From Candidatus Thorarchaeota archaeon (GTDB lineage: Archaea > Asgardarchaeota > Thorarchaeia > Thorarchaeales > Thorarchaeaceae), in assembly GCA_004524565.1 (NCBI GenBank), contig SDNZ01000001.1, positions 12,455 to 76,454 on the forward strand: a stretch of 64,000 nucleotides of DNA, given 5' to 3'. Under the pieces are notes generated by a model. The model saw only the letters and a program-made list of their open reading frames with translations. It was not told the origin of the DNA and did not search any database. Shown here one piece after another: positions 9,874 to 63,721 of this stretch. Both the position numbers and the translations under genes were made by a program. Numbering within the stretch: position 1 is the first letter of the stretch; each line of letters starts with the position of its first letter.

Positions 9874-9999
9874 TTGGTCATCAATGAGAAAGAGCTGGTT
9901 CTTGTTTTAAACATCTGCCATTATTGTAACATGCGGTAAGTGTAATAAGCGCGCATTTCTCAAGCATCTTGTTTCCTACTATCTCTAAGAGGTGGTATT

Positions 10000-47118: not shown

Positions 47119-48066
47119 TTGAGCGATGAATTGACTGAAACCTTACAGAATATCAAAACGATAACTGGCGTTGAAAATGTTGTCCTAATTCAAAAAGACG
47201 GTCTTCCTGTAGCAAGTGCAGGAGTATGGTTTAGCAAAGAAGAGGTCTTTGCGGTAGCATCTTCAACATGTGCGATTTTTGGCGTGGCCAAGTTAATTCA
47301 TGGCGATTTCAACTATCTTCTAATGGAATCAGAAACATCCAAAGTGTTTCTTGCATCGCTTCCTAATGACCCTGATTACTTTCTTACTGTAACTACTGCC
47401 CCAAGAGTGAATCTTGCAGCATTATTTATTGAGATGAAAGATAATCTATCAAGATTATCGTATCTCCTAAGACAACACATTGATGGAAGACTTCCACCTC
47501 TCAGGTCGTATAGTACTGATGAAACAAGTCGTGTGCTTGAAGGATTTGCGGTAGCTGAAGGTCGTGATACTACATACGGTATTTCACGGTCTGTAATATC
47601 ACTTGATCGATCACAGGCTCTAAGTCTGAGAGCCCTTTTACGACAAGTACATGATTCTATCCCTGGTATTAGTTCTGTATTTCTATCATTGAGTGGTGGA
47701 GTCAGAGTTTCCCTAGAAGGATTCACAAACGATAGGCTTGCTGCAATGTCGTTTGCATTACATGATGCCTCCGAAAGGGTTGTGAGAACCCTCAGGAACA
47801 GTTCTCTACAAACCGTTCTGTGTGAAACAAGTTCAACTCGACACTTCATCTATGCAGTACCTAATGGTGTATTTAGCCTCTGGGTCGATAAAGATAGCCA
47901 GAAGCTTGGTCTTATGAGACTACTATTGAAACATTACATAGAAGAAACTCGACGAGTACTTTCTTCAGTTTCAATGGTTAAACCAGCTGTTCCTGATGAC
48001 CTAAAGGAACTACTTCTCGCAGGAAGTTCTGATAGGGGTCTACTCATGACGAGGAGAGATAAATGA
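47119..48066 (+). CDS. Tandem Roadblock/LC7 (MglB-like) domain protein.
   Basis: 'ITGVENVVLIQKDGLPVAS...SKVFLASLPNDPDYFLTVTT' is a classic roadblock core. A second similar unit follows ('ISSVFLSLSGGVRVS...RHFIYAVPNGVFSLWV'). Confidence 0.6.
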   Translation: MSDELTETLQNIKTITGVENVVLIQKDGLPVASAGVWFSKEEVFAVASSTCAIFGVAKLIHGDFNYLLMESETSKVFLASLPNDPDYFLTVTTAPRVNLAALFIEMKDNLSRLSYLLRQHIDGRLPPLRSYSTDETSRVLEGFAVAEGRDTTYGISRSVISLDRSQALSLRALLRQVHDSIPGISSVFLSLSGGVRVSLEGFTNDRLAAMSFALHDASERVVRTLRNSSLQTVLCETSSTRHFIYAVPNGVFSLWVDKDSQKLGLMRLLLKHYIEETRRVLSSVSMVKPAVPDDLKELLLAGSSDRGLLMTRRDK

Positions 48067-48983
48067 CATATTCAATACTACGTATGATTGAACTAATGGG
48101 TGATCAATTTCCATTACTACTTAATTCAGTCTTAGAACGAATACCTGTAATTGTCGCAGGAGAAGATATCGAACTTGTGGACGATATAACAGAATGCCTT
48201 ACAATGCTTTGTCCACACAGACATAAACTGGTCTTTTGGAGAGATTTTACTTCAGAGTCAGAGATATTATCTGTCTGGGAAGAGGAGAAACACAACTATG
48301 AAGTCAGCAGAACTGTTGTTTGTGGACTGTCTGGAAATCTGAGGTTAGCCTTGGATAGAATCACTCGTTTTGCAGGTTGGATTCTAGCTATACCATTAGG
48401 AACTATGGTTCTTGGTGTTCAGGTAGATGAAAAGACCTTGGAAGATGTCATATCTCATGTTCAAAATAACTCGGGTAATTGTGGGATACTTAGAATTACT
48501 TCCCCATCAGCAATAACATTCACTCTCCTGAACCAATCTAATAGTAGTCTTGATGTAGAAAAGAAAATAGTCAATAAAATTTTAGTTCGGAAAAAGCAAT
48601 CTTTAGAGAGAATCCGCCGCTTATTAACAAAATCACTTCGCGGTACAAATGTATCAGAGCATATTGTGAATGCAGTACTAAAATTAGATGATGAGTCAGA
48701 GAAGCTCACACAAGATGTCTTCGAGGAGGAGATCAGCAACTATGTCCATGCCGCACGTAGAGCTGTAACATTGCTCTCTAGAATCCGACTTGCTAGAGAG
48801 CTTGGAGCATCTACCACTCTAACGGAGCGAAATCTCTACGAGGCAATTGGATGGGAGGGAGGAGAATTAATAGATTTGATTCATTTCATACGAGCTGAAT
48901 GGCATGAAGACTTTTCGGACTGTGTTAAGCTTGGTGCACTATCAGGTCTGGGAGCATGGGTCGATAGTATGTGGGGTACTTGA
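48063..48983 (+). CDS. Hypothetical protein between the roadblock and GTPase genes. Overlaps both with tight spacing.
   Basis: 306-aa ORF. Its start overlaps the upstream stop by 4 nt. No family was recognised. Confidence 0.4.
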   Translation: MTYSILRMIELMGDQFPLLLNSVLERIPVIVAGEDIELVDDITECLTMLCPHRHKLVFWRDFTSESEILSVWEEEKHNYEVSRTVVCGLSGNLRLALDRITRFAGWILAIPLGTMVLGVQVDEKTLEDVISHVQNNSGNCGILRITSPSAITFTLLNQSNSSLDVEKKIVNKILVRKKQSLERIRRLLTKSLRGTNVSEHIVNAVLKLDDESEKLTQDVFEEEISNYVHAARRAVTLLSRIRLARELGASTTLTERNLYEAIGWEGGELIDLIHFIRAEWHEDFSDCVKLGALSGLGAWVDSMWGT

Positions 48984-49001
48984 GTTTAAGGTGATTAACA
49001 C

Positions 49002-49583
49002 ATGATTATAGACTATGGCAATCGAACTGTTGGTCTCAAGATTGTTTTCTTTGGACCTGCAATGAGTGGAAAAACAACAGCAATTCGATGGTTATTTTCG
49101 TCGCTAGATTATGCTGATAAACTGACATCGATTGAAAATACTGTTGGCAGAACAATGTTCTGTGATTTCGGAACCATTCCATTTCCACTCAATGAATCTT
49201 GGACTGTTAACGCTCATGTTTGGTCAGCCACTGGTCAAGATTTCTATAGATCTACCCGCGAGGTGGTTCTTGTAGGTGCGGATGGTGTTATTTTCATGGC
49301 TGATTCTCAAAGTAACTTGCTAGATGAGGACCTTGCAAGTTGGAAGGAGCTTATGTCGATGATTGCAGAGGAAGAACGGCCATTACCAGTTGTTGTATGT
49401 CTTAACAAACAAGATCTTCCTGAAGTAGTTCAAGAAGGACACCTCAGAGAACATTTACGACTTCCGTCCTCAGTACCTGTATTCAGAAGTATTGCTAAAG
49501 ATGGTCATAACATCCTTGAGGCCTTCCAATTCATATTCCAAGCTGCCATGAAAGCTAGTGTCGTTGCCAAACCTGTTTCATAA
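49002..49583 (+). CDS. Ras-superfamily small GTPase (MglA/Arf/Rag-like).
   Basis: 'FFGPAMSGKTT' P-loop (G1), 'VGRT' (G2 Thr), 'WSATGQ' (G3, DxxGQ-like), 'NKQDL' (G4), 'SIAKDG' (G5, SAK). Confidence 0.7.
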   Translation: MIIDYGNRTVGLKIVFFGPAMSGKTTAIRWLFSSLDYADKLTSIENTVGRTMFCDFGTIPFPLNESWTVNAHVWSATGQDFYRSTREVVLVGADGVIFMADSQSNLLDEDLASWKELMSMIAEEERPLPVVVCLNKQDLPEVVQEGHLREHLRLPSSVPVFRSIAKDGHNILEAFQFIFQAAMKASVVAKPVS

Positions 49584-49596
49584 AAGACCTAGAAAT

Positions 49597-49673
49597 TGGT
49601 GCGACCGCCGGGATTTGAACCCGGCTTGAAAGCTTGGGAAGCTTCCGTCCTAACCAGACTAGACAACGATCGC
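49597..49673 (-). tRNA. tRNA-Gly(CCC), intron-less.
   Basis: Reverse complement gives GCGAUCG...CGGUCGC-A-CCA. Anticodon stem GAAGC/GCUUU with loop UUCCCAA. T-arm CCGGG-UUCAAAU-CCCGG. Confidence 0.8.
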
Positions 49674-49788: not shown

Positions 49789-50922
49789 ATGTCTCCCAAC
49801 GTTAAATCATTGAACTTCTGGCAAGGAAATCAAGCCTGTGCAGAGGCAGCTATTGCAGCTGGTTGCAGATTTTTTGCAGGTTATCCAATTACACCAGCAT
49901 CTGAGATTGCTGAAATCATGTCCCAACAATTACCTAAAATTGGAGGGACCTATGTGCAGATGGAAGATGAAATTGCAGCAATTTCAGCTGTGATAGGTAG
50001 TGCATGGGGTGGATCTCTATCGATGACTGCGACTTCAGGTCCGGGCTTTAGTCTGATGCAGGAAAATATTGGATATGCCATAATGACTGAAACTCCGTGT
50101 GTTATCGTGGATGTTCAAAGAGCTGGACCCAGTACTGGACAAGCAACAAAAGCAGCTCAAGGAGACCTCATGCAAGCAAGGTGGGGAACTCATGGTGATC
50201 ATGAGATGATTGTATTAGCGCCTAATTCATCCCAAGAAACCTACGAACTCACACTCAAAGCGTTTAGTCTATCAGAGAAACTTCGACATCCGGTTATTCT
50301 TCTTTCTGATGAGGTCGTAGGTCATTCAAGAGAAAAAGTAGTAATAGACCCCCAAAGTAATAATCAAATACACAGAAGATTGGCGAAAATGGGTGAACCA
50401 TCATATGGTGGTGTGGATTCTAATGGACATGCAATAATGCCAAAATTTGGAGATGGACATAATCTTCTGATAACAGGTTCTACCCATGATGAGCGAGGTT
50501 TCAGGAAGACTTCTGATTCTGAAGCCCACGATAGACTGATTCGAAGAATTACAGCCAAAATCCAAGATGCAGCACCTATTTTAAATGATTTCGAGATTTC
50601 AGGTCCGGAGAGTGCCGAGTGGGGGATTATTTCTTTTGGTTCTACATCAAGGTCTGTTGAGGAGTTGATGACTACTAAAGATAGTAAACCAACCCTAAGA
50701 ACGATGAGATTGAAGACAGTTTGGCCATTCCCTGATCAAGCAATACGTGAATTCAGCAAAACAGTTGATAAGCTACTAGTCCCTGAATTGAACCTTGGAC
50801 AAATGTCTAGAGAAGTTTCACGTGTCGTTAGGGATACCGTAGAAGTAATTCCATTGAATAAAATTGGTGGTGGTCGAATGATTGAACCAGACGAATTACT
50901 TACTACCATGGTCCAGTCATAA
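49789..50922 (+). CDS. 2-oxoacid:ferredoxin oxidoreductase alpha subunit (KorA/PorA-like). No adjacent beta subunit.
   Basis: 'AGYPITPASEIAE' and 'TATSGPGFSLMQE' are OFOR alpha motifs. 377 aa. Confidence 0.8.
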   Translation: MSPNVKSLNFWQGNQACAEAAIAAGCRFFAGYPITPASEIAEIMSQQLPKIGGTYVQMEDEIAAISAVIGSAWGGSLSMTATSGPGFSLMQENIGYAIMTETPCVIVDVQRAGPSTGQATKAAQGDLMQARWGTHGDHEMIVLAPNSSQETYELTLKAFSLSEKLRHPVILLSDEVVGHSREKVVIDPQSNNQIHRRLAKMGEPSYGGVDSNGHAIMPKFGDGHNLLITGSTHDERGFRKTSDSEAHDRLIRRITAKIQDAAPILNDFEISGPESAEWGIISFGSTSRSVEELMTTKDSKPTLRTMRLKTVWPFPDQAIREFSKTVDKLLVPELNLGQMSREVSRVVRDTVEVIPLNKIGGGRMIEPDELLTTMVQS

Positions 50923-52611
50923 AGAATTGATTCATCAATCTCGATAATTACGATGATGCTAGTCTTCATCCACACAGTCACATTTTCCGTTTGAATAGAA
51001 GATATGAAGTATGGTGCAGCTATCTCAAAACTGAATGTATGTTCTCCAGCTTGAATCCTGAGTGGAAGTGGCAATGAAATAGGTTGAGTTGTAATGATCT
51101 GAGGAATAGTTGCAAAGGGAGTGCTTTCATTATCGCAATAGGCCATTATGGTGACTATATCGATTGTATTATTATTGAGATCAAAGGCCGAAAGGATGAT
51201 GTGAAGATTTTCTCCATAGAAAGCAGATTCTACGGTGACATTGATACTGAGTTCCCCAATAACATTGAACTGGAATTCGTATAGTTCAGAGAAATTGTAG
51301 TATGCATTAGTTGGCTCAGGAGTGATTAGATGAGGTCCTATTGTTAGGTTATACCAAGCTGTTAGTGGTACACTACTCAATAGGTGAGGAGTTATACCTT
51401 TAGAGATAGAGAATTCACCAAAATCATCCGTGAATTGTAATGTGATTTCTTGGCCCCAATTAAATTCCTCCTCAATTGTAAATTCGATTGATGTAGTATT
51501 TCCATGAATAGCGGAAATATTCGTTTGAACTGGATAAAAGTAAAGTATGTTCTCATTGGCGGTAATAGGAATAAATTGAGTATTTGCTTGATATTTTGGA
51601 TTTGATGTTGTGATATTGATGATATATAAGCCTGGAGGCGTTTGAAATGGGATTACAGTAGTATAGAACCCATCTCCAAGATTTGCCATTTCCCCGTTGT
51701 TGAAACCTGCATTCCACAAGAGTGTGCTATCGGATATCCCACTATAGTCTGCTGCTTCGTGCCTTACGGTTATGTTCACATTTTCGAAATGTGAACCATC
51801 TGGGGATTGGCATTGAACAGAGGAGGGAGCAGAAACAACTGTTAGATTAGAAGCTGTGGGAACTACTGAAAGCGGTAAAGATTTAGAAAATCCTAGAAAA
51901 TCTTCGTTTCCACTTCCTGATACTATTAGATCATAGGTGCCAGGTAACCCCATTGAGCTGTTCCAGTCGAAACTAAAAGAACCATCGGGATTAGTTGTCG
52001 TATTAGTGTCAAGTATTGTTTCTGCACTAGGATTATCAATTCGAATATTGATAGACTCGTTGGCATATTCAACGTTATTATCATAGATTGATACGACACG
52101 GGAAATCAGTGTTGCATTACTGTCAGATTGTACGACCAGAGGAGTGACCGGAACAACGGTGAGATGACCTCTTGTGATGAGAACCTCAATGTTGTCACCA
52201 GCACCTTGAGAAACTGTATCAAATATCTCAACGTTGAAAATAATGTAAGCAGTGCTTCCATTTTCACCTGGACTTGTATCGCTTGGTAGGATAGTATATG
52301 ACGAATTTAGCATACGTGGATTTGGTGAAGCTGAAATGAAATATTCGTCTGCAAATGTGGGACCTAGGTCAGTGACCGCAGCAAAGGAAATATAGCACCA
52401 CCCCTCTGGACTAAAATCAGCAATTAATCGTGCAACCATATCAACTGTTTCTCCGACTTCATACACCATCTTGTCAGTTTCAAAATACTGAAAATCAAAA
52501 TAGAATGCTGTTACGGATAGTGTCATTCCCAGAACAATGATTACTGATAGTGATACTATTGCTAATCTCCTTTGTTGCACAGGCAAACACCAAAAAGAAG
52601 TCATATTCATG
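50736..52611 (-). CDS. Secreted/surface Ig-like repeat protein with an N-terminal signal/TM anchor and many N-glycosylation sequons.
   Basis: N-terminus 'MNMTSFWCLPVQQRRLAIVSLSVIIVLGMTLSV'. Long beta-rich Thr/Ser/Asn-rich ectodomain with many N-x-S/T. The 3' ~190 nt overlap korA convergently. Confidence 0.5.
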
Positions 52612-52685
52612 CCTAAAAAAGAGCACACGAATCTAGCGACAGGTTTAACTCAACACTTAACTAGCCTCATTTTAAGCCCCTAACA

Positions 52686-53069
52686 TTGTGGAGTGATATT
52701 TTAATGGTTATAAGACTCAAGGATACTGTGATTGAATCTGTAGATGATACTGAAACTAGAAGACTAAGGACAATTAAAATGGCATCAAAGGCTGATGGGG
52801 CAACAATCACACTTGAACTACCTGAAGCGCTCTCTGGAACAATGAGTGTTGGAGAAATTGTAAACGTTGTAATTGATTCTAAAGAGATAACCACTGGTGA
52901 GAGTTCTAAACTCTATGTAGAAGGTACTATTTTCAAGAAATCGGACAATGGTGATTTTGAAATCATCGGATCAATAGGAGGTTTACGTCTAGTATTTACA
53001 TTAGAAAAAGCAACTCCAACTCAGATAAAAACGTTCGATTCCGAAAAATTTTACATGGCTATTAAATAA
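52686..53069 (+). CDS. RNA polymerase subunit Rpo8 (RpoG, Rpb8 homolog), putative.
   Basis: 127 aa. 'IESVDDTETRRLRTIKMAS...ITLELPEAL', 'KLYVEGTIFKK' and 'GSIGGLRLVF' parallel the Rpb8 blocks 'VSEVDPGRYNKVCRIEAAS...LTLDINVELFP', 'YVMYGTAYKF' and 'SFGGLLMRL'. Confidence 0.5.
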   Translation: MWSDILMVIRLKDTVIESVDDTETRRLRTIKMASKADGATITLELPEALSGTMSVGEIVNVVIDSKEITTGESSKLYVEGTIFKKSDNGDFEIIGSIGGLRLVFTLEKATPTQIKTFDSEKFYMAIK

Positions 53070-53241
53070 GAGTGTAATTCTCTCGGTAAATAGGAGAATA
53101 CTTTCGGATACCTCTTTCTGGCTAGGCTTATTGAGTTCTAGTAAAGAATGGTATTGTACATCCTGTAGAACTTTCAACCGGTGTAAATAGATGAATAATG
53201 CCTGAAACTCAGTTAGGAGAGAAAGTCCCCCATTTTATTGG

Positions 53242-54291
53242 GTGTGGTCTTTGACTGATGAAGTATGTGAATCTCGTTCAATAACTTCGCGATCCTGTCC
53301 AGACTGTGAAGGTTTTCTTATTACCAGTCGTGGGCATATAGTATGTGCTGAGTGTGGCTTGGTTATCTCTAGAGAGTTTGTATCGCCAACATATCAGATG
53401 GGAGAACAAAAACAAGGTAATACTCCAGATGCAACTATGTATGTTTCCTTAGGAAATAGAATGCATATTGTAGATGGGTTAGGTAGCTATATTGGGTTCC
53501 ATAAGGATAGATATTTTCAAGATGCAAATGGGCAATCTCTCTCCGGTCGAACTCAGAAAAAATTCAAACGTCTCAAAACCATTTACAGTACTAGAATTCG
53601 GATTGGGAAGAATGAGGCCAAATATCGAGCTCTCAGAACGCTTAATCATGTATCGAAATTGTTAATGTTAAATGAGCAGGTGCGAGATCGTACTGCATAT
53701 CTCTACAAGAAGGTGATTTCAGAATCAGTTGGAAAAGTCAGTAATAACATTCTATTGATAGCAGTATGCCTTCTTATGGCTGTACGAGAGTTCAAGAATG
53801 AAGCTCCAATAACACTTGATGAAATTGCTAGTGTATTTGAGAAATGTGGTCACCGTGTCAATGTTAGAGCCATCGTAAGAGAGGCTCTTAGACTCAAGTC
53901 ATTGACAGGATATGCACCAGAAATTCGAAAACCGAAGGATTATGTTCCAAGAGTGGTTTCTATGCTGATGAACAATAGTCGGGTATTGAGCAAAGTCAAA
54001 TCACGAGGATGGACTCCTAAATCCTATGAGAATGCGCTTAGAGAGAAAATTCACATGGTCCTAGGAATGATTCCTGCTTCAAAACGTGGGGGTCGTAATC
54101 CATTCATATTCACTGTTTCTGCAGCCTATGCCAGTGATCGCTTAATTGCATCTCAGTTTGAAAGACGTCCTGTCCTTACTCAAAAATTGACATCAACTGC
54201 AACTGAGGTTGCTGAATATAGTATTCGTGATCATTTTGGTATGATGAAGAAGATTGTTGAAAAATCAGATGTGGTTGAGCTCATTCAGTGA
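53242..54291 (+). CDS. tfb: Transcription factor B (TFIIB family).
   Basis: N-terminal 'CPDCEGFLITSRGHIVCAECGLV' zinc ribbon followed by two cyclin-like helical repeats. 349 aa. It is rather divergent from canonical TFB. Confidence 0.7.
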   Translation: MWSLTDEVCESRSITSRSCPDCEGFLITSRGHIVCAECGLVISREFVSPTYQMGEQKQGNTPDATMYVSLGNRMHIVDGLGSYIGFHKDRYFQDANGQSLSGRTQKKFKRLKTIYSTRIRIGKNEAKYRALRTLNHVSKLLMLNEQVRDRTAYLYKKVISESVGKVSNNILLIAVCLLMAVREFKNEAPITLDEIASVFEKCGHRVNVRAIVREALRLKSLTGYAPEIRKPKDYVPRVVSMLMNNSRVLSKVKSRGWTPKSYENALREKIHMVLGMIPASKRGGRNPFIFTVSAAYASDRLIASQFERRPVLTQKLTSTATEVAEYSIRDHFGMMKKIVEKSDVVELIQ

Positions 54292-54354
54292 GAGTTGATT
54301 TCTTGGTAGTGCCATATTAGGGACCATGGTGATTATGATTGGGGTCATTGCTAA

Positions 54355-56031
54355 ATGAAGCAAAGCGTTCAGATTATACAATGCTCTTCTAATCGATGTG
54401 ATAGTTGTCCAAAGAAGTTCAAATTAGACTGCCAAGAGCTAGTATCCGGAAATCAGGTTATGGAGAAATCGACTATTCTAGTTGAAAAAAGTAGAGGACT
54501 GTTTCATATTAGATTTAGAGGGAATCCAATTCTAGCCAACCCACCTTGGTCTACGGATGGGTGGGAATCTATTTTCGTTGGTAAAGATTGTGATTTATTC
54601 CATAATATGACGGAGATGATTGATATCTATCGTGTTGGGCCATATGTTTCACTTTTCTTTAACGTACAGGAAGACCGTCAAATTAGATATATTCAACTTC
54701 CAGTTGTAAGAACTGCTTTAGAGCTCTCATTGCTAAGCGATCTTGGCAAAGATATAAAGAGTTCAATTAATCCAGTATTAGGGTTTAGAGAATCTGTAAC
54801 AAAACAGCTTGAACGTGTCACTGTTGATATAGCAGGCTATATTAAAGAACAAATCCCCGAGATTAATGAGAATACAAGAGCACGAATTGCGCAGATAGTA
54901 GCTCATCGAACAAATATCCTTGGTCGTATTTTTCCAATCTTGCTGGATGAAATGACTGAAGAAGTGTATCTAGATGGACCTAATACCTTAATTTACTTTG
55001 ATCACCAGAAGATGGGTAGGTGTATTACTTCTAGTAGTTTCGATGAAATTGAAGTACCCCGAATAGTAACTTTTCTTCGCTCAGAAAGCAATTTACACCT
55101 AGATCGTAGCAATCCATCACTAAAGATGGAATTAGGTTTACTAGGATCAGTTCTACGTGTATCAGCAAGTGTCCCACCATTAAGTGCAGATGGTTTGAAT
55201 TTAGAGATTCGACGTGCTAGAAAACAACCTTTCACAATAAGAAACCTTATCGAAAATAGTACAATTACAAAAGAAGCTGCTGCTATCCTTCTACTTGCAT
55301 TAGCTAGTAGGTTGAATATTACGATTACGGGAGGCCCTGGGACAGGAAAAACCACCTTGCTAAATGCTCTTGATAGTGTAACTCCGCGATGGTGGAGAAA
55401 AATCTACATTGAAGATGCCATTGAAAGCAGAACTTCACTTGATCATCATCAGGTCAGATTACAAGTTGATCCTGTAGATGAACAACATAAGAGAATGAGT
55501 AAGAGTGAGGAGATAGTGAAATGTCTCCATCGATCACCAGACTATTTGATTCTTGGAGAGATTCAGACTGTAGAACATAGTAAGGCACTATTTCAAGCAA
55601 TAGCAGCTGGTCTTCATTCAATTCAAACATGTCATAGTGATTCAGCAGCTAGTTTAATCACAAGGTGGATTCTTGGTCACAATATCGAAAAATCCAATAT
55701 TGGGTTAATGGATTTGATTGTTACATTGGAAAGACCAAAGCCAGGAGAATCTAAACGTCGAGTAAAAGAAATTGTAGAAATTCGCAAGGGTATTCAGAAT
55801 GGTCTATTGACATTTCTGGGTACTAATATTGTGTATGACAGTATTTCAAAGAATGTTGGTAGTTTTGCTGAAGATGGGTCTTTCAGAACTCTTGCAAGGA
55901 GTTTAGGAATCAATAATCCTGAACAAGCTCTAAATTCATTGATTTCGCGCTTCCATAATTATGATGAGAATATGGAAGAACTTAGTGAGAGTATGTGGGC
56001 ATACGGTCATCCAATGAAATTTGTTGCATAA
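54355..56031 (+). CDS. Type II/IV secretion-family ATPase (T2SSE; FlaI/TadA/VirB11-like) with an N-terminal Cys-cluster domain.
   Basis: 'ITITGGPGTGKTTLLNAL' Walker A, 'YIEDAIE' Asp box, 'RSPDYLILGEIQT' Walker B, 'TCHSDSAASLITRW' His box. The N-terminus has 'CSSNRCDSC...C'. Confidence 0.8.
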   Translation: MKQSVQIIQCSSNRCDSCPKKFKLDCQELVSGNQVMEKSTILVEKSRGLFHIRFRGNPILANPPWSTDGWESIFVGKDCDLFHNMTEMIDIYRVGPYVSLFFNVQEDRQIRYIQLPVVRTALELSLLSDLGKDIKSSINPVLGFRESVTKQLERVTVDIAGYIKEQIPEINENTRARIAQIVAHRTNILGRIFPILLDEMTEEVYLDGPNTLIYFDHQKMGRCITSSSFDEIEVPRIVTFLRSESNLHLDRSNPSLKMELGLLGSVLRVSASVPPLSADGLNLEIRRARKQPFTIRNLIENSTITKEAAAILLLALASRLNITITGGPGTGKTTLLNALDSVTPRWWRKIYIEDAIESRTSLDHHQVRLQVDPVDEQHKRMSKSEEIVKCLHRSPDYLILGEIQTVEHSKALFQAIAAGLHSIQTCHSDSAASLITRWILGHNIEKSNIGLMDLIVTLERPKPGESKRRVKEIVEIRKGIQNGLLTFLGTNIVYDSISKNVGSFAEDGSFRTLARSLGINNPEQALNSLISRFHNYDENMEELSESMWAYGHPMKFVA

Positions 56032-56111: not shown

Positions 56112-56339
56112 TTGAGCTCGAGGTGTAACTCTGTGGAAGAATCAAATCTCGTTCAGAATGAACAGGGTGGTCCCCTTGTTGAAGAAAGTCTCCTGTTAGG
56201 TCTAGCTGTAGTAACAGTTTCAATTGTGATAGCAGTCATTCTCCAAGCAACTGGATGGGCTCAAGATGTTGTTGGTGGACTACTACAGCTTTTGCAAGAT
56301 AGTTGGAGTAATCTAACTCAGTTATTTTCTGCACCATGA
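56112..56339 (+). CDS. Small Flp/pilin-like protein with a possible class III signal peptide. Putative.
   Basis: 75 aa. 'NEQGG|PLVEESLLLGLAVVTVSIVIAVIL' resembles a G|xxxxE prepilin cleavage motif followed by a hydrophobic helix. There is no basic residue before the Gly. Confidence 0.3.
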   Translation: MSSRCNSVEESNLVQNEQGGPLVEESLLLGLAVVTVSIVIAVILQATGWAQDVVGGLLQLLQDSWSNLTQLFSAP

Positions 56340-56437: not shown

Positions 56438-56548
56438 GCTCCGGTAGTCTACCATAGTGTCATACTATGGTGGTACCGACTGTAGTCCGGCCCAGCATGG
56501 GGGGTTCTCGACCCCCCGACCCGGGTTCGAATCCCGGCCGGAGCACCA
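56438..56548 (+). tRNA. tRNA-Glu(CUC) with a ~33-nt non-canonical intron in the D-arm (around positions 11/12).
   Basis: Acceptor GCUCCGG/CCGGAGC-A-CCA. T-arm CCGGG-UUCGAAU-CCCGG. Anticodon stem GGGGG/CCCCC with loop UUCUCGA. A Glu-type D region GUAGUCCGGCCCAGCAU lies after an insert (56449..56481) that contains the hairpin CCAUAGU/ACUAUGG. Confidence 0.65.
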
Positions 56549-56558
56549 ACTTCAATTT

Positions 56559-58502
56559 CTATACAGCCAGATACTTTTGTCTGATTAATGGTATTGCAAC
56601 AATAGTGAGAGAAGTCAGAATGCCTAATCCAAAACCGTTGATACCAATACCTTGGGATGTCAAAATATCCACAAGTGAAATGGAGATATTTATAGATCCA
56701 GTCAAAGAAGCTATATTGTGAGTCTGTTCTATAGCGTAATATAATGTATAATTTCCACTAATACCAGGAACTGGTAAATGTATCACTGATAAACCATCTT
56801 TTTGGGTAAGTGCATGATTTTCAATTGATAACCAAATGACATAGATTGGAATTCCTTCAATTAACGAACCATTCAAGCACGTTACTTGAAGGTAGACTGT
56901 GACTCTTTGAAGAGGAGGAACTATTTCGTAGTAATCAAGTTCTACTAAGACGGGAATGGAGGTACTGACTGTCAGAAGATAGTCGAGCTTCGTTGATAAT
57001 TCGTATCGAGTCAGATTCATTGGATAAATAACTGAGAAATTGTATATTCCTTCATAATTAGGAGCAAAAGCTGTAATAATTGCAATTCCACTTTCGTTTG
57101 TAATGACTGATGTAACTATCTCACCGTCACATAGAAGATGCATGGGTTGGTCACTGATGTTCCTAGACCAATCTGCAAGTTGCACAATGAAATTGAGTTC
57201 TTGGTTTGGAGATGCAAAATTGAATGTATTGCTATAGATAAGTATCAATTCTGGCTGTGACCATATCACAATATTCTGCATTATTGTCCTATTAATAACA
57301 AATTGGTTTCCAATCTCTATCATAAAATCATGCAGTCCTACAGGTTCAAGAAATGTGAATTTAAAATTGAAATCTATTGTATCATGAGGTACTTGTATGG
57401 TCATATTTCGTCCATTTGAAATATCGATTACACTAAGTGTGGTTTCGATTGGACGCCCGAGTATATCACACAATGAGATTGTAACATTTGTATCTAATCC
57501 GATAGCTGCAGGTGAGGATATTTCTATATCGATAATTGCTGGGCTGAGAACATCGAATTCAATTATACAAGAGGTTTTTGAATATCGTTCTGATCCATTA
57601 TAGAATATATTTAGAAAATGGTGACTCAATGAAAATTGCTCATTAATAGCTATATTGATTGTGCCATTACCTAAGGAATCGGTCGTTGCAACAGTCAATG
57701 GAGTCCCATCAAGAAATACTTCAAGATTAGCAGAAATTCCTCCATCGATACTTGTTAGCATTACCTCCAAATCAAGAGAATCATCCAGTAAGATGGAATC
57801 AATTGAGAAATTTGATTGTATTGAAGTCTGGATTTTTTGTATTTCAATAGAAAAATTAGTTTCGGCACGTTCGTAGTAGTTTTCGATATCCTGTTCGTGT
57901 ACAATCTTGATTACGTTTTCACCTAGTATACTCCATGAACTATTACAATGAATCGAAAAAGATGCATCACCGGTGCTATTAGTCACAGCAGTTGCAAGAA
58001 AGATGTCATCACTGAAAACAAAAAGAGTTCTATTGTTTATTGGATTGGAGGTATCATCAAGAAGAACAACAGAGAATGAAAGTGTATCATCAGGAGCTAG
58101 CATTAATGGAACGCCCTGTAGTACAATCTCCGTCGATGCTAATATATTCAGAATAAAACTTTGGTTAGAAGGTACAAGAAAGAGCGACTCATTTCCACGA
58201 AAGGTAGCATTGATTTGCGTTGGACCCAATGAATAATCAAAAGGAATATTCCAATCGATTGATGCTAGACCATTCACATCCGTAGTATCAATACCAAGCA
58301 ATAGATTGTGGGTCTGGTCATAGAACTCAATACTTTGTTCTGGCACTGGATTTCCATAAGACCCATTTTGTAGAAGTATCACAGAGATGGTTATATTCTG
58401 TCCTCGAACAGCAACATGTTCTTCGTCTGCACCTACAGTACCTATGCTTGAAGCAACAATAAGGAATGCCAAAGTAGCAATCAATAGAAGAGCATTACGC
58501 AT
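56559..58502 (-). CDS. Large secreted Ig-like repeat surface glycoprotein with an N-terminal signal peptide and a C-terminal TM anchor.
   Basis: N-terminus 'MRNALLLIATLAFLIVASSIGTVGA'. C-terminus '...GFGLGILTSLTIVAIPLIRQKYLAV' is a hydrophobic anchor plus a basic tail. Many N-x-S/T sequons. Confidence 0.55.
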   Translation of the reverse strand: MRNALLLIATLAFLIVASSIGTVGADEEHVAVRGQNITISVILLQNGSYGNPVPEQSIEFYDQTHNLLLGIDTTDVNGLASIDWNIPFDYSLGPTQINATFRGNESLFLVPSNQSFILNILASTEIVLQGVPLMLAPDDTLSFSVVLLDDTSNPINNRTLFVFSDDIFLATAVTNSTGDASFSIHCNSSWSILGENVIKIVHEQDIENYYERAETNFSIEIQKIQTSIQSNFSIDSILLDDSLDLEVMLTSIDGGISANLEVFLDGTPLTVATTDSLGNGTINIAINEQFSLSHHFLNIFYNGSERYSKTSCIIEFDVLSPAIIDIEISSPAAIGLDTNVTISLCDILGRPIETTLSVIDISNGRNMTIQVPHDTIDFNFKFTFLEPVGLHDFMIEIGNQFVINRTIMQNIVIWSQPELILIYSNTFNFASPNQELNFIVQLADWSRNISDQPMHLLCDGEIVTSVITNESGIAIITAFAPNYEGIYNFSVIYPMNLTRYELSTKLDYLLTVSTSIPVLVELDYYEIVPPLQRVTVYLQVTCLNGSLIEGIPIYVIWLSIENHALTQKDGLSVIHLPVPGISGNYTLYYAIEQTHNIASLTGSINISISLVDILTSQGIGINGFGLGILTSLTIVAIPLIRQKYLAV

Positions 58503-58695: not shown

Positions 58696-61600
58696 TTGCC
58701 ATTCCATTTATCTTTCAAACGTACGAAGAAAGAGGACAGCTCTTTCAAATTAGAAGATTCTAGGAGTATCTTATGGATAAATAGAGTGTGGATTCTTGGG
58801 ATCTTTAGTATCATTCTCTACTTTTTAATTGTCTATATCTTACCCCTCTATAAAGTGATAACAACTCCTCTGATTCCTTTCAAGACTGCTATTGAAATCA
58901 TTGTTTGCCTTATACCAATTTTTTCTGGTGCTTTTCTTAGCAAACAAAGAATGGAGCAAACCAATCTAGCAGTGTCTGTGGAAAATGAAATGATGCTGAT
59001 TGATCATAATGGCCGCACTATTGGATTATGCTGCCTTGAAATCATGTCCACAGCAAGCTCAATCTCTTTGGATGATAAAGGATACCCAAAGTACAATGCT
59101 TCTATGTTATTAGCAATGAGATCAGGAATGGACAAATCAGTGAATATGGCTTTTGAGGCAGGAATTTCCGAAGGAGAACCATTCTTACGAATTTTCATCA
59201 CTGCTACAGGTACTGATTCATATTTGATTAAGGAAATAATTCGAAGAGAAGCAACTAGAGCCGAAGCTATTCTATTGGCATCATTAAATATGATTGATCT
59301 GAGAATTCTTGAAGGGCATGAGTTAGAAGGAGCCGCCGCTCTCTTTGTTGATAATACTGATTACAAGTCAGGTGATATTTTCCAAGAAATTGATAGTGAA
59401 CGAGCTCTTGTAGTACTGAAAGGTAGTCCCAGAGTTAATCCATCAATTGACGCATCTCAAGTAGGTACTTTTATCTCAACTGCTATGAAAAAGGGATATT
59501 CTGTAACTATGACTTGTATTTTCTCTGCAGCAAGACCTGGTAGAGAAAGAAAACGACTTGAAGGAAAATGGAAAACAATACAATCGAAAGAGAAACGAAA
59601 AGAGGAGTCTCTGAAAGATCACGCCCTGAAAAAACAATTGGTCACACAATATGAAGAAATTCAAGATGATGTAGGATGGTTTGATTCAACAGTATATTTT
59701 GTAATCAAGCAAAACCTGCGTAGTGATATTGCCGTAGCTACAGAAGGAGTGAGAGGATTAATACTTTCGATTTGGGGAGGGCATGATTCATTCAAGTTGG
59801 ATATGAAGAAAATTAAACGAAGAACAGCTTTAAGGTTGTTATCAAAATCCCATCTTAAAAAACAAAGAATGCATGTTAGTAAACTTGTGTCCTTCGTCAA
59901 TACACCAGTTAGGAGTCTTCCAATTATTGGACCAGAAGAAGCACCTGTATTCCAGATTCCTTCCCGTGAATCTTTAGGGAAAGATATTATGATTGGGGAT
60001 ACCATTTTTGATGGTAGACCCTTTTCAAGTGCGGGGCTAGAGATAGAATGGCTTAGAGAACATGTAGCAGTTTTAGGTGCGACTGGTACAGGAAAAACAA
60101 CCTTGGTGAAGCATCTCATTAGTCAGATTAGTGAAAAATCGGATATACCTTGGTGGATTTTTGATGTGAAAGGATCGGAGTATGCGGGATTGATAAAGCA
60201 TAGTGAAAGTGGGATTACTATCTTACGTCCTGGACTTGACTCATCATTTGTGATTAACCTAATGGATTCTAAAGCAGTAAATGCAGAGAGCTCTGCATAC
60301 TCTACATTCATCATGTTGAAGGAATTACTCAAGGAGAGAGGAGACTCATCAGAATTGTCTCCTGCAATGGAACGATTACTTAGAGAATCAGTAATGAAAC
60401 TAGCGGATTCTCTAGAAGAAAACAACTCAGTTCAATCATTGGCAGATATGATAACACAGTTAGCTTCAAACGATCGTATGGGTCAAATGACAAGGGATGC
60501 ACTTCTCAATCGCCTTCAAATTTTATTCCAAGAACCACTTGGTGATATTCTTCGTGGAGGTGCTGATGCGATTGATATCTCAAGTCTATTAGACAAACGA
60601 ATTATCCTAGACCTGAGTTATGTTGCAAGAATTGGAGGTATGGATTCAGCACGGATACTATACAATCTTATTGCAAAGCGGATTTTTGAAAGAGCAATGA
60701 AGAGAGGCATTGTTTCAGGACTACGCCATATAGTGGTTCTTGAAGAAGCCAACAATCTAGTACCTGAAAGTTACTCTAAACACTCTTCTGCTGATGTTAC
60801 CACTGGTGAATCAATGGTTTTGTTGCAGCGTGCTACAGGTCAGGGAGTTATTGTAGTTTCGACACGACCTAATATCTCATCAAATATTCTAGCAAATACT
60901 GCAACAAAGATAGTATTTCGATTGCCATATGACAGTGAAATTGGAGGCAAGTTCCTATCATTAAATGAAAAACAAGAGACCTATTTGCGGAGTATGAAGT
61001 GTGGCCGAGCCTTAGTTTCGATCCCCGATACTGAGACCTTTGAGATTGCAACGAAGTTGTTCATCGATAAAGTGATTCCAGAATCTGAAGATACAGAACC
61101 TGAGAAAGAAGAAATGCTTCATCAAGAACAACAAGTTTTGGTTCAAGATACGATAGTAGTAAAAGAAGATGAACCGGAAGAAAAAAAGGTCGAGGAAATT
61201 CCTGATACAGAAGCACAAACTGTTGTTTTTGACAGAGTGGGGCGTTTTGGAAATCATGTTGTAGCGTTCTTAGCTTCGGCAGGAATGTCAACAGAACAGG
61301 AGATACGTGAATTGTTGACTTCTCTTAATCCAACTGTAATGGAAGATGATATTTCAGAAGTCATAAGAGATTTAGTCACACTGGGTACAATAGAACGTGA
61401 GGCACTATCTTTAGTTCCTGGTGGCTTCGTCTTTACACTTCCTGATAATGGTTTAGAAGCTATTCGGAAGGTCATTGTACAGTACATTTCAGACAAGTTA
61501 GGAATAGAGCAAGATTCCAATACCGAGAGGCAACCAGAATGGCCTGATATGATTGTTGATGAAAAAGCTGTTGTTATTCTACCGCAACATCTCAGAGCTT

Positions 61601-62472
61601 CTTCGATGGAATCTACCATGACAAAAATTAGACATTATATGGAAATGCTCCAAAATGGAATTAGCGAATTATTTGTTGTTGTAAGAGGAAGTGTTGCAGC
61701 TGCTAAGCTTCGAGAATTATTAGATAAGTTTGAAGAGTTCGATGCAGTCAGGGTTGTTTCTGCATTCCCCAGCTCTCTAGATTCAATGATTGAAAATTTG
61801 AGCCGAGGATCTGTTTCCAATGAAGTTGCAAGCGAGGTAGATGAAGATATGGACCTTATTGGTGCAATGCATGATATAGGACCAGCAACAAGTAGGGCAA
61901 TTCAGATTCGATTATGGTTTGGTTTAATTCAAGATTTTGTCGATTTATCAAATGGTCAAATTAAATGGGAAGTGCTTCTTGAATTCATTGAGACCACTGC
62001 ACTACAATCTCTTAAGGGCAGATCAGCTCCATTAACTGTGGAGGAAGGGAGAAGGGCTTTGACAGAGCTTCTGGCAGATGAAGTACTGATTGCTTTACGC
62101 TCGAGTGGAGATAACAAGTTTGTTGATATGGACCAAGGTCTATGGATAGTTAATTCTTCAATATTAAAGAAATTAAAAGAAACATCAATTCAGATTATAG
62201 AAACTGAGCTTAGGAAACACCATTCTAAAGTTTCTCGCAATCATGGTTACTATGATCTTTGTGCAAACAATACATCCTATGTAGTTTTTCCAAATCAACA
62301 ACAATTGAGTACCCTCTTGAATTTACATAGTGATATTGCTTGTAGGACATGTAAATCATCCAAGGTTGTATGTATTCTCACGGCTTCAGAATATCTTGAA
62401 GATAGTGTGGTTACTCCTGGAAATCTAGTCATTAAGACAATGGATGATAGTGTTTCTGCTCTTGTGACCTAA
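58696..62472 (+). CDS. Giant membrane-anchored FtsK/HerA-superfamily P-loop ATPase (DUF87/VirB4/VirD4-like architecture) with a long C-terminal extension.
   Basis: 1258 aa. Two N-terminal TM helices ('ILGIFSIILYFLIVYILPLY', 'AIEIIVCLIPIFSGAFL'). 'HVAVLGATGTGKTTLVKHL' Walker A and 'HIVVLEEANNL' Walker B (hhhhDEAH-like). Acidic linker 'PESEDTEPEKEEMLHQEQQ'. C-terminal ~400 aa helical/wH-like. Confidence 0.7.
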   Translation: MPFHLSFKRTKKEDSSFKLEDSRSILWINRVWILGIFSIILYFLIVYILPLYKVITTPLIPFKTAIEIIVCLIPIFSGAFLSKQRMEQTNLAVSVENEMMLIDHNGRTIGLCCLEIMSTASSISLDDKGYPKYNASMLLAMRSGMDKSVNMAFEAGISEGEPFLRIFITATGTDSYLIKEIIRREATRAEAILLASLNMIDLRILEGHELEGAAALFVDNTDYKSGDIFQEIDSERALVVLKGSPRVNPSIDASQVGTFISTAMKKGYSVTMTCIFSAARPGRERKRLEGKWKTIQSKEKRKEESLKDHALKKQLVTQYEEIQDDVGWFDSTVYFVIKQNLRSDIAVATEGVRGLILSIWGGHDSFKLDMKKIKRRTALRLLSKSHLKKQRMHVSKLVSFVNTPVRSLPIIGPEEAPVFQIPSRESLGKDIMIGDTIFDGRPFSSAGLEIEWLREHVAVLGATGTGKTTLVKHLISQISEKSDIPWWIFDVKGSEYAGLIKHSESGITILRPGLDSSFVINLMDSKAVNAESSAYSTFIMLKELLKERGDSSELSPAMERLLRESVMKLADSLEENNSVQSLADMITQLASNDRMGQMTRDALLNRLQILFQEPLGDILRGGADAIDISSLLDKRIILDLSYVARIGGMDSARILYNLIAKRIFERAMKRGIVSGLRHIVVLEEANNLVPESYSKHSSADVTTGESMVLLQRATGQGVIVVSTRPNISSNILANTATKIVFRLPYDSEIGGKFLSLNEKQETYLRSMKCGRALVSIPDTETFEIATKLFIDKVIPESEDTEPEKEEMLHQEQQVLVQDTIVVKEDEPEEKKVEEIPDTEAQTVVFDRVGRFGNHVVAFLASAGMSTEQEIRELLTSLNPTVMEDDISEVIRDLVTLGTIEREALSLVPGGFVFTLPDNGLEAIRKVIVQYISDKLGIEQDSNTERQPEWPDMIVDEKAVVILPQHLRASSMESTMTKIRHYMEMLQNGISELFVVVRGSVAAAKLRELLDKFEEFDAVRVVSAFPSSLDSMIENLSRGSVSNEVASEVDEDMDLIGAMHDIGPATSRAIQIRLWFGLIQDFVDLSNGQIKWEVLLEFIETTALQSLKGRSAPLTVEEGRRALTELLADEVLIALRSSGDNKFVDMDQGLWIVNSSILKKLKETSIQIIETELRKHHSKVSRNHGYYDLCANNTSYVVFPNQQQLSTLLNLHSDIACRTCKSSKVVCILTASEYLEDSVVTPGNLVIKTMDDSVSALVT

Positions 62473-63275
62473 GTTGATTGGATTCTCGTGCAAATTACAG
62501 ATTTGTTCTCAAGTAATGCAGTTAAACGGCCAGAAACAAGCAAATTAAAAATTGCAATCTCCACATTCAGATTAGCTAAATCTAAAAGCTCTGTAATCTT
62601 CTTAGTCATTCCTCCAGTCACATCTGTACTAGAAGAGGGACCTGTTAGTGAAAGTATTTCTGTTTTGTTTGAGTTATTGATAAGGGGAATGGGTTTTGCA
62701 TTTGGATTATCTGTTGGGTTGTCATCCATGACACCATCTACATTAGTACCAATAAGAACAGCTCTAGGCATGAGCTGCTCAGCAAGATGTTTTGCAATTG
62801 TGTCGCCACTAAGGATGGATGCAGATTTTGTTTTGTCGATACATACATCCCCATGAATAATAACAGAAATACCAGCTTTCAATGTTTCTTCGATTATCTC
62901 TGTTGAAAAATGGTCTATCAAATTGTTACGCAGTGTTACGAACATGAAGGGAGAAATAACTACTCCAGGAATCCCTTGAATTTTCAGTTCCTTTTCAACT
63001 CTTGATGCAAGCAGCAACATATTATGGCGTATCTCTGGAATTCCTGCAAGAAGCTTTTCTGAGGGTGTATCAGGATTTCCAAAACCATGTTTATGAGCTG
63101 CTTGATGGCCATGCGCTCCACCACCAATGACAATTATCAACTTGCCTTTGTGTACTGCGAGCTCTTTCACAATGCGACTGAGATGGTCCTCATTAACTGT
63201 GGGGGGGGATGATTCTTTGTGAGTAATCACCGATCCTCCTAATTTGACAATAACGAGATTCTCCAATTGTAACAC
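62469..63275 (-). CDS. Isopentenyl phosphate kinase (amino-acid kinase family; archaeal mevalonate pathway).
   Basis: 'VIVKLGGSVITHK' and 'IIVIGGGAHGHQAAHKHG' match the IPK glycine-rich and His motifs. 268 aa. Confidence 0.7.
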   Translation of the reverse strand: MLQLENLVIVKLGGSVITHKESSPPTVNEDHLSRIVKELAVHKGKLIIVIGGGAHGHQAAHKHGFGNPDTPSEKLLAGIPEIRHNMLLLASRVEKELKIQGIPGVVISPFMFVTLRNNLIDHFSTEIIEETLKAGISVIIHGDVCIDKTKSASILSGDTIAKHLAEQLMPRAVLIGTNVDGVMDDNPTDNPNAKPIPLINNSNKTEILSLTGPSSSTDVTGGMTKKITELLDLANLNVEIAIFNLLVSGRLTALLENKSVICTRIQST

Positions 63276-63409
63276 ATTTTGTCAGGAGTGATACTACTCT
63301 TATGGACGTTATCATTTTATGGTGAACAATTGATTCACAAGACAAGCTTTTTATCCGATTCATTTTCCGTAGCCCTTGGACACCTCTTAAAGCCGAGAGT
63401 GATTATTAC

Positions 63410-63721
63410 ATGACTCAGAGAGCACGAATACGATTGTCAAGCACGAGTACAGAACATCTGGATGGAGTCTGTAATCAAATTAAACGAATTACTAGAAAAA
63501 CAGGTGTCCGAATGGCAGGTCCGATACCACTACCTACTCGTAGAATGGTAATCCCTACAAGAAAGACTCCCTGTGGTCAGGGGTCTGAATCATGGGATAA
63601 ATGGGAAATGCGTGTTCATAAAAGGCTCATTGATATTGATGCAGATGAAAGAGCTATTCGTCAGATTATGCGTGTAAGAATCCCGGACTCAGTCTATATT
63701 GAGATTGAACTAACTGGATAA
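63410..63721 (+). CDS. rps10: Ribosomal protein S10 (uS10).
   Basis: '[42 protein letters not shown]'. 103 aa. Confidence 0.9.

Follow-up and report, generated by a model that had tools for sequence, protein, structure and literature searches.

Related transfer systems and motors

The Sulfolobales Ced system and the Thermoproteales Ted system are domesticated type IV secretion systems (T4SSs) (PMC9905601). CedB and CedD are DNA-import ATPases composed of a transmembrane (TM) part, an N-terminal domain (NTD), together with a HerA/VirB4-like ATPase domain (PMC11868833), and the TFB paralogue TFB3 activates the ups and ced genes (PMC6101594). The gene described here was found in an Asgard archaeon, Candidatus Thorarchaeota, at 58696..62472 (+) of a 64,000-nucleotide stretch of contig SDNZ01000001.1, referred to below as the window. 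It encodes a membrane-anchored VirB4/HerA-type ATPase of 1258 amino acids (aa), and the name BIG is used here for the gene, its product, and their homologues. By analogy of layout and genomic setting, CedB/CedD and TedB appear to be its closest functional analogues. With a probability of roughly one half, BIG is read here as the VirB4-equivalent motor of a chromosomal, Asgard-wide T4SS/type IV pilus (T4P)-like apparatus akin to Ced and Ted, with its C-terminal tail acting as a partner-binding adaptor.

BIG shares the order of TM part, NTD, and HerA/VirB4-like ATPase with CedB, CedD, and TedB, and the layout given for CedD, including a VirB4-NTD-like domain (PMC11868833), is found in it. CedD is also its best NCBIfam match (5e-14), and the setting is likewise chromosomal and T4SS-like, with a TFB paralogue and T4P-like genes that parallel TFB3, Ups, and Ced. 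A number of differences can be noted. With the ATPase domain alone aligned, BIG reaches 51.8 bits on the CedD model (cut-off 600) and 26.6 on the CedB model (cut-off 700); a Ced match at the equivalog level is thus lacking, and BIG is not an orthologue of CedD. Whereas CedB and CedD each have part of a VirB4-like NTD, in BIG it appears to be complete. The tail makes BIG about twice as long, no CedA/TedA channel gene was seen near it, and it is found in Asgard archaea rather than in Thermoproteota.

The best structural match of BIG, aligned over the full length, is VirB4/TrwK from R388 (7o41, 7o43, 8rtd), with which it shares a body made of an NTD and a RecA-like C-terminal domain (CTD). BIG likewise has genes for a 2-TM pilin-like protein and a VirB11-family ATPase nearby. 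Attachment to the membrane by way of a small TM element is a further common trait. In sequence, however, BIG is not a member of the VirB4 family TIGR00929, and its ATPase is nearer to the HerA clade. BIG also adds a 47-aa acidic tether and a 416-aa winged-helix and α/β tail. Partners of the VirB6, VirB8, or VirB10 kind were not found for it, and it is not plasmid-borne but chromosomal, with fixed synteny in the Thor-type clade.

A further described locus is that of T4P subclade 4D from Thermoproteales, which encodes TFIIB, RPB8, and an ATPase with a small Cys-rich N-terminus (Makarova et al. 2016, PMC4858521), together with a 4-5-TM protein, but neither pilins nor a VirB4-like ATPase (PMC4858521). 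The Cys-rich ATPase, TFB, and Rpo8-like genes of the window (52686-56031) match this description, a likeness drawn from the published gene descriptions (arCOG05558, arCOG05559). The Asgard cluster differs by its pilin-like genes, its surface proteins, and BIG itself.

The BIG gene and its motor domain

BIG is a genuine gene of a family of membrane-anchored VirB4/HerA-type motor ATPases that extends across Asgard archaea. It is an uninterrupted open reading frame (ORF) with a TTG start preceded, 6 nt 5', by a GGGAG-like ribosome-binding site, and its product is 100% identical to the NCBI 'ATP-binding protein [Candidatus Thorarchaeota archaeon]' (P0001). More than 100 full-length orthologues were found, at 54-92% identity, mostly ~1250-1270 aa long and with the same full architecture. 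In an alignment of 95 sequences, identity per 40-residue block is 0.55-0.91 almost throughout, including 0.56-0.86 over the last 420 residues. The less conserved blocks are the N-terminal tip, residues 81-120 and 201-240, and residues 801-840 (0.23, gapped). The first-pass annotation of the window had taken the ORF for a single membrane-anchored FtsK/HerA-type ATPase with an unusual C-terminal extension and had named a frameshifted gene pair as the alternative. Such a fusion artefact is ruled out by the colinear orthologues and the conserved tail, and the annotation stands on all three counts: the ORF is a real gene, its product has two TM segments and an ATPase of this superfamily, and the extension, which typical HerA, CedB, and VirB4 proteins do not have, is strongly conserved among orthologues. 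The family is unstudied: members have been annotated so far only as 'ATP-binding' or 'DUF87' proteins, and no paper describing it was found in the literature library searched. What is new is a motor of the VirB4/HerA family fused to its membrane anchor and extended by a conserved acidic tail of predicted tandem winged helices.

The RecA-like P-loop ATPase domain (aa 438-795; 60007..61080, +) was recognized by Pfam, NCBIfam, Protein Data Bank (PDB), and fold matches. It carries a Walker A motif, GATGTGKTT (aa 461-469; 60076-60102, +), a Walker B motif, HIVVLEEA (aa 678-685; 60727-60750, +), and a QRATGQG/STRPN motif (aa 711-726; 60826-60873, +). Across the wider family, the Gly and Lys of Walker A and the R, G, and N of the third motif are invariant, and the other positions are largely conserved. 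The Pfam DUF87/HerA-central model reaches 54.8 bits against a cut-off of 23.2 (E 1.8e-14), and this score, the Walker motifs, and the fold matches place BIG among the P-loop ATPases of the FtsK-HerA superfamily. Its NCBIfam matches after CedD include several HerA models, VirB4_CagE (1.5e-7), and CedB (2e-6), all with scores far under the curated cut-offs. On sequence grounds, the ATPase belongs to the HerA/VirB4 branch.

Within this superfamily, the best PDB sequence matches are HerA proteins, including the archaeal double-strand break repair helicase 4d2i, with which BIG shares the ATPase motifs EEA...R..G...S.RP...IL...K. Nevertheless, BIG lacks an equivalog-level match to the HerA proteins of repair or defence: the HerA models score only 15-36 bits against cut-offs of 800-970 (36 against 800 for HerA_antiphage), and no NurA or effector partner is encoded next to it. 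The N-terminal domain of HerA is a small HAS-barrel, far smaller than the 350-aa domain that takes its place in BIG, and HerA has neither the TM anchor nor the large C-terminal tail. Two more specific searches bear on the defence and plasmid settings. PADLOC matches of BIG (HerA, mad8) are weak and limited to the ATPase, and its neighbours have none, so that a defence system was rejected. A plasmid origin was rejected as well, as what tblastn found in PLSDB was limited to Streptomyces 'ATP-binding proteins', 27% identical in the ATPase domain.

The Walker A sequence had earlier been likened to that of TrwB/VirD4 coupling proteins. This link does not extend beyond the P-loop. Pfam TrwB_AAD_bind scores 22.5 bits against a cut-off of 20.5, but only over ~50 residues (aa 448-497, matched by positions 7-57 of the 387-position profile); for SXT_TraD, the score is 12.7 bits where 366 are required, and TrwB ranks below VirB4 and HerA among the fold matches. 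The full-length VirD4/TrwB domain with its all-α insertion is thus not found. FtsK/SpoIIIE proteins, of the same superfamily, are built in an analogous way, with a TM anchor followed by the motor, a flexible linker, and a winged helix at the C-terminus. They differ by their motor subtype and genomic context: the match to Pfam FtsK_SpoIIIE (PF01580) spans 28 residues and, at 16.6 bits, stays under the cut-off of 24, Ftsk_gamma has no match on BIG, and the BIG tail is acidic and not γ-domain-like.

Membrane anchor and N-terminal domain

Exactly two TM segments are predicted in BIG. Kyte-Doolittle windows exceed 1.6 only in a hairpin made of TM1 (~aa 24-50) and TM2 (~aa 54-83), encoded at 58765..58944 (+). 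Since the residues before TM1 (aa 1-23) are K/R-rich, the positive-inside rule points to an N-in/C-in topology that leaves most of the protein in the cytoplasm. Some bacterial systems have VirB3 and VirB4 fused; the hairpin of BIG recalls such fusions and, by analogy, could replace VirB3.

The hairpin is followed by a cytoplasmic domain (aa 84-437; 58945..60006, +) that had been left as a domain of unknown nature in the first-pass annotation. Its predicted fold is VirB4-NTD-like. An AlphaFold2 (AF2) model of aa 84-800, built from a 55-sequence alignment with a mean predicted local distance difference test (pLDDT) score of 82.7, was compared as a whole, N-domain and ATPase together, with the PDB by Foldseek. 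The ten top matches are all TrwK/VirB4 chains of the R388 T4SS, led by the full-length TrwK/VirB4 chain 8rtd_O (E 2e-21), with ~800-830 aligned columns covering both VirB4 domains. HerA (E 2.6e-15) and then TrwB (E 6.5e-11, TMt ~0.6) rank below them, and the matches to all three have a probability of 1.00. The isolated VirB4 CTD (4ag5) superposes on the model with a TM-score of 0.72. The modelled region therefore has the two-domain layout of VirB4, a large NTD followed by a C-terminal ATPase, and the 350-aa N-domain of BIG is best read, from the predicted structure, as a VirB4-type NTD.

The acidic C-terminal region

The ATPase is followed by an acidic linker, poorly conserved and probably disordered (aa 796-842; 61081..61221, +), in which 18 D/E face 4 K/R. 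Identity among orthologues falls to 0.23 in this region, with gaps, and the C-terminal model begins with low pLDDT values. The Glu/Asp-rich linker had been anticipated at ~80 aa; it is present, but measures 47 aa. Similarly, the ~400-aa C-terminal region expected beyond it is present (aa 843-1258, 416 aa) but, according to an AF2 model of aa 837-1258 (pLDDT 67), is not simply helical as had been supposed but a mixture of winged-helix and α/β modules. The modelled order is a winged helix (~847-914), a small α/β module (~952-1035), a low-confidence acidic spacer, a second winged helix (~1064-1153), a long helix, and a β-rich α/β module (~1179-1248).

Two units can be delimited on this basis. Unit 1 (61222..61815, +) comprises a winged-helix-like module (aa 843-920), with the modelled secondary structure H-E-H-H-E-E, and the small α/β module (aa 921-1040), which carries the motifs VVVRGSVAAAKLRE and SAFPSSLD; their net charges are -7 and -5. 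Unit 2 (61885..62469, +), delimited from AF2 secondary structure, comprises a winged-helix-like module (aa 1064-1155), the long helix, and the β-rich α/β module (aa 1179-1258). This last module harbors a cluster of four cysteines (C1189, C1216, C1219, and C1226, including CRTC) that is invariant in 35 Thor-type sequences and partly lost in the 40% orthologue P0128. The cluster possibly binds a metal. Two motifs of the same region (aa 1183-1226; 62242-62376), HGYYD and FPNQQQL, are likewise invariant in Thor-type sequences. An internal duplication relating units 1 and 2 is suggestive from sequence but not significant (hhalign E 0.058, probability <1%; reciprocal hidden Markov model (HMM) searches, i-E 0.2-3).

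With single sequences and with profiles, no relatives of the tail were found outside the family in Pfam, in a PDB profile search, in a collection of 5.8 billion proteins, or in viral contigs, which returned only fragments of the same family or noise. Foldseek searches of the tail model against PDB and BFVD gave generic winged-helix or tandem matches, all with E >= 0.004 (RTP, MarR/YodB, MukE/F, Nse1/3/4, FokI). A nuclease was considered and rejected: the FokI/BspD6I-like matches are insignificant, and the acidic residue and Lys of a 'PD...EDK' sequence are only 4 residues apart. The region from aa 796 to 1258 has a net charge of ~-36, with -7 and -4 in the winged-helix modules. Because of this charge and of the acidic winged helices, simple DNA binding is disfavoured and recruitment of partners or substrates is favoured. 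Of the two functions proposed earlier for the tail, a DNA-binding or a partner-binding module, the second thus stays plausible, and the tail is most likely an adaptor that recruits protein partners or substrates rather than a direct DNA binder.

Distribution across Asgard archaea

An exhaustive HMMER search gave 2274 hits. The nearest of these relatives (P0121-P0128) are full-length and 40-46% identical to BIG. More distant ones, of 800-1440 aa, share the TM anchor, N-domain, and ATPase at 23-34% identity, and end in tails of 45-584 aa that are unrelated in sequence. The metagenome-assembled genomes (MAGs) encoding family members bear the names Thor, Hel, Loki, Odin, Baldr, Ran, Njord, Heimdall, and 'Asgardarchaeia'; the core is therefore Asgard-wide, and the Thor-type tail is clade-specific. 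The unit 1 HMM also matches the tail of the P0140 lineage (E 6.6e-11).

For the comparison of loci, a single genome scan returned 8 Helarchaeota loci, and metagenome loci were found with a hand-made degenerate motif, the broad family alignments being too divergent for the design of scan patterns. The Helarchaeota MAG Hel_GB_B encodes two BIG paralogues on separate contigs (L011, L013), each beside a radical-SAM gene. A B12-binding radical-SAM gene lies beside or near BIG in Helarchaeota and in one Lokiarchaeota MAG (L004 14179-15729, -; L006 6985-8526, -; L011, L013, L035, L065, L084, L087).

Gene neighbourhood

Gene context, which the first-pass annotation had not seen, is the most informative evidence for the role of BIG. 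Its most consistent neighbour across Asgard lineages is a gene for a ~80-aa protein with the pattern TM1-(K/R)GK loop-TM2 (alignment A10), the topology of which resembles that of the pilins VirB2, TrbC, CedA1, and TedC. At P0141-type loci, it lies 146-164 nt upstream of BIG on the same strand (5 of 5 informative metagenome loci), and in Ran (L020, 8058-8297) 82 bp upstream. It is 0.4-0.7 kb from BIG at P0143-type loci and L019, and 4.5 kb away in Odin. On the contig of the window itself, it is found ~3.2 kb downstream of the BIG stop (L001, 9162-9401), at about 65.7 kb in window coordinates and hence past the window end. Further members of the 2-TM family are encoded at L002 16983-17231 and L027 1170-1415.

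Upstream of BIG, the window encodes a set of genes that resembles a T4SS/T4P hybrid. A 558-aa secretion ATPase of the T2SS/T4P/T4SS family (54355..56031, +), VirB11/TadA/FlaI-like, matches Pfam T2SSE (1.4e-21) and, under the cut-offs, NCBIfam TadA-family (4.8e-31), FlaI (6e-26), TrbB, and VirB11 models. It has an N-terminal cluster of four cysteines (C10, C15, C18, C26), and a search with it returned Thor orthologues alone. The next gene (56112..56339, +) encodes a 75-aa protein that, judging from a comparison of orthologues, looks like a Flp/type IV prepilin. It is highly conserved in Thor-type genomes, with a variable charged leader ending in G-G, followed by PLVEESLLLGLAVVTVSIVIAVIL..., a hydrophobic helix, and an amphipathic tail; the conserved motif is G|GPLVEESLLLGLAVV..., i.e. 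G|G-P-L-V-E-E, with Glu at +5. The Hel orthologue (E 1.4e-9) reads KRG|SPVVEEG, and the gene is syntenic in all Thor-type metagenome loci covering that side. Between it and BIG lie tRNA-Glu(CUC) (56473-56548, +) and a divergently transcribed gene for a 647-aa Ig-like surface glycoprotein (56559..58502, -) with a signal peptide, a C-terminal TM anchor, 22 N-x-S/T sequons, and weak Pfam matches to Big_3_5, Big_1, and MG4.

Before the secretion ATPase gene, the window encodes a divergent 349-aa TFB/TFIIB paralogue (53242..54291, +; NCBIfam TFIIB 66.7 bits against 384), in which Pfam recognizes one cyclin repeat and a weak Zn ribbon, and a 127-aa Rpo8/RpoG-like protein (52686..53069, +; Pfam RNA_pol_RpbG E 0.0012, below cut-off). 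A 630-aa predicted surface glycoprotein (50736..52628, -) has an N-terminal TM segment or signal and 19 N-x-S/T sequons, with no Pfam match. Farther upstream, three adjacent genes (47119-49583, +), referred to below as the trio, encode a Roadblock/LC7 protein (315 aa), a 306-aa protein with no Pfam match, and an Arf/Ras-like small GTPase (193 aa). A gene for a POR subunit and tRNA-Gly(CCC) (49597-49673, -) lie between the trio and the 630-aa glycoprotein gene. On the downstream side, genes for ribosomal protein S10 and IPK lie a few kb or less from BIG (62469-63721).

This gene order is kept in Thor-type genomes down to ~46% identity, which in itself proves little. More telling is the recurrence of the partner genes with BIG in shuffled arrangements. 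In two Helarchaeota loci (L004, L011), the orthologue of the window's TFB paralogue (41% identity) lies directly upstream of BIG. The next 12 kb encode the prepilin, then a short Roadblock protein and the trio, and further a surface protein and the T2SSE ATPase. At a third (L014), the T2SSE gene is upstream of TFB-BIG, and at a fourth (L016), the trio lies 4 kb upstream of BIG on the other strand. At L019, which encodes a 40% orthologue, the genes for the T2SSE ATPase, the Rpo8-like protein, the surface protein, and BIG are contiguous, the Rpo8-like orthologue standing between the T2SSE and surface-protein genes; the surface protein adjoining BIG is a homologue of the 647-aa glycoprotein. The trio lies 4.5 kb downstream of BIG there, and the TFB paralogue 9.6 kb upstream. 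In Odin (L007), the trio is 8 kb upstream of BIG, and surface proteins are encoded on both sides; Ig-like ones are found near BIG in this locus and in Hel L017. Overall, the trio is conserved as a unit (29-63% identity) in Hel (L004, L011, L016), Odin, and L019, within ~3-9 kb of BIG but in varying position and orientation. In an 'Asgardarchaeia' MAG (L010), a 166-aa A24 type IV prepilin peptidase (9412-9912, +; Peptidase_A24 31.2 bits against 26.5) is encoded 88 bp upstream of the BIG homologue, and a canonical HerA-NurA pair is encoded separately, ~4 kb away.

Proposed role and alternative explanations

If BIG is the VirB4-equivalent motor proposed above, the N-in/C-in hairpin would hold each protomer at the cytoplasmic face of the membrane, as in a VirB3-VirB4 fusion, and a ring would, by analogy, be assembled from the VirB4-NTD-like domain and the RecA-type ATPase, whose Walker A, Walker B, and Arg motifs are intact. 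ATP hydrolysis could pull the small 2-TM VirB2-like protein out of the membrane for assembly into a filament or conduit and/or push a macromolecule, possibly DNA, across the membrane. A filament for adhesion or cell contact would come from the VirB11/TadA-like ATPase, the Flp-like prepilin, and the Ig-like glycoproteins. The part of a dedicated transcriptional switch would fall to the TFB paralogue, analogous to TFB3 for ups/ced in Sulfolobales, and the Roadblock/small-GTPase trio may provide MglA/MglB-style spatial or temporal control. Finally, the Thor-specific tail, on its 47-aa disordered acidic tether, would recruit protein partners or substrates.

Several observations weigh against this reading. 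The VirB4-likeness of the N-domain rests on one AF2 model and its Foldseek alignments: a 12-sequence profile of the domain has no matches in PDB or Pfam, and the TrwK/VirB4 alignments have global TM-scores of ~0.35 with a root-mean-square deviation of ~18 Å, because domain orientation differs. VirB4 membership fails in sequence, with 30.1 bits against a cut-off of 643 for TIGR00929 and no match of Pfam CagE_TrbE_VirB on BIG. The Pfam Flp1_like match in the 75-aa prepilin-like family, noted for the Hel orthologue, is sub-threshold (E 0.04). The same holds for the TrbC/VirB2 matches of two members of the 2-TM family (E 0.0028 and 0.0053), and the profile of this family retrieves no pilins (VirB2, CedA1, TedC) from PDB; the 2-TM protein is therefore treated as a candidate pilin only. 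A VirB6/CedA/TadC-like polytopic membrane protein is absent from the 64-kb window, and none was noticed beside the homologues. Single Loki, Baldr, and Heimdall loci have no partner genes within 10 kb. Moreover, the gene for S10 stays within a few kilobases of BIG in Thor, L019, Ran, and Heimdall (L009, L019, L020), that for IPK does so in Thor and L019, and EF is also a persistent neighbour. Part of the conserved gene order may thus be ancestral synteny and need not mean a functional link.

Taken to its end, this last point would make BIG a stand-alone membrane ATPase, for instance in membrane remodelling or protein quality control, with neighbours that are simply inherited. The housekeeping genes kept beside it (S10, IPK, GlmS, EF) and the Loki, Baldr, and Heimdall loci examined would fit. 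This is unlikely, given that the partner genes recur in varied order and orientation in Thor, L019, several Hel loci, and Odin, that three further lineages have the 2-TM gene right beside BIG, and that the A24 peptidase gene adjoins it in another. Somewhat less likely still is an FtsK-like membrane-anchored DNA pump that clears or segregates the chromosome at division, with the tail winged helices acting as an FtsK γ domain. The domain order parallels FtsK, BIG is a conserved chromosomal gene in the Thor-type clade, and it often lies among replication and translation genes (Cdc6, RFC, GINS, PCNA/primase, S10). However, the short FtsK_SpoIIIE match stays under its cut-off, the fold matches favour VirB4 and HerA, and the tail as a whole is strongly acidic, its winged-helix modules included. 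Outside the Thor-type clade, moreover, the core is conserved but the tail is not, and the pilin-like, secretion-ATPase, and prepilin-peptidase neighbours would be left unexplained.

Coupling proteins typically have an N-terminal TM anchor and a C-terminal adaptor-like extension. BIG has both, and its Walker A region matches TrwB_AAD_bind above the cut-off, with TrwB as a significant fold match. A VirD4/TrwB-type coupling protein delivering DNA or protein to a separate channel is nevertheless improbable: the Pfam match is confined to 50 residues at the P-loop, VirB4 and HerA stand above TrwB in rank and cover a larger part of BIG in their alignments, the large N-domain has no counterpart in TrwB, and a relaxase gene is absent nearby. 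BIG could, however, combine VirB4 and coupling functions. The least probable of these explanations is a HerA-type helicase acting with a nuclease or effector in double-strand break repair or anti-virus defence. Its appeal is that the best sequence matches are DUF87/HerA-central, HerA models, and the PADLOC HerA and mad8 profiles. Yet these HerA scores lie far below the curated cut-offs, no NurA, Sir2, DUF4297, or other effector gene is adjacent to BIG in the window, and a separate canonical HerA-NurA pair is present at the 'Asgardarchaeia' locus. Repair HerA proteins and those of defence islands usually lack such an anchor, N-domain, or fixed synteny. The 2-TM anchor, the VirB4-NTD-like domain, and the conserved gene order of BIG are unlike them.

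Beyond the motor role itself, a more specific version of the proposal is possible but doubtful. It would see in these genes a T4SS-like machine in which the motor resembles a VirB3/4 fusion, the 2-TM protein is a VirB2-like pilin, and a VirB11/TadA-like ATPase takes part, co-organised in the genome with a Flp-like pilus, Ig-like adhesins, a dedicated TFB paralogue, and the Ras-like GTPase/Roadblock proteins. Such a machine would serve cell-to-cell exchange of DNA or macromolecules under eukaryote-like small-GTPase control, with the Thor-type tail as a lineage-specific substrate or partner receptor.

Implications for Asgard archaea

If the proposed role of BIG as a VirB4-equivalent motor is right, BIG would mark an undescribed surface or transfer apparatus conserved across Asgard archaea, driven by a motor that is recognisably VirB4-like, fused to a membrane anchor, and extended by a new adaptor region. 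The account of domesticated archaeal T4SSs provided by Ced and Ted would then extend from Thermoproteota to Asgard archaea. The finding would also bear on partner contact, DNA exchange, and appendage building in Asgard archaea, which are central to syntrophy-based models of eukaryogenesis.

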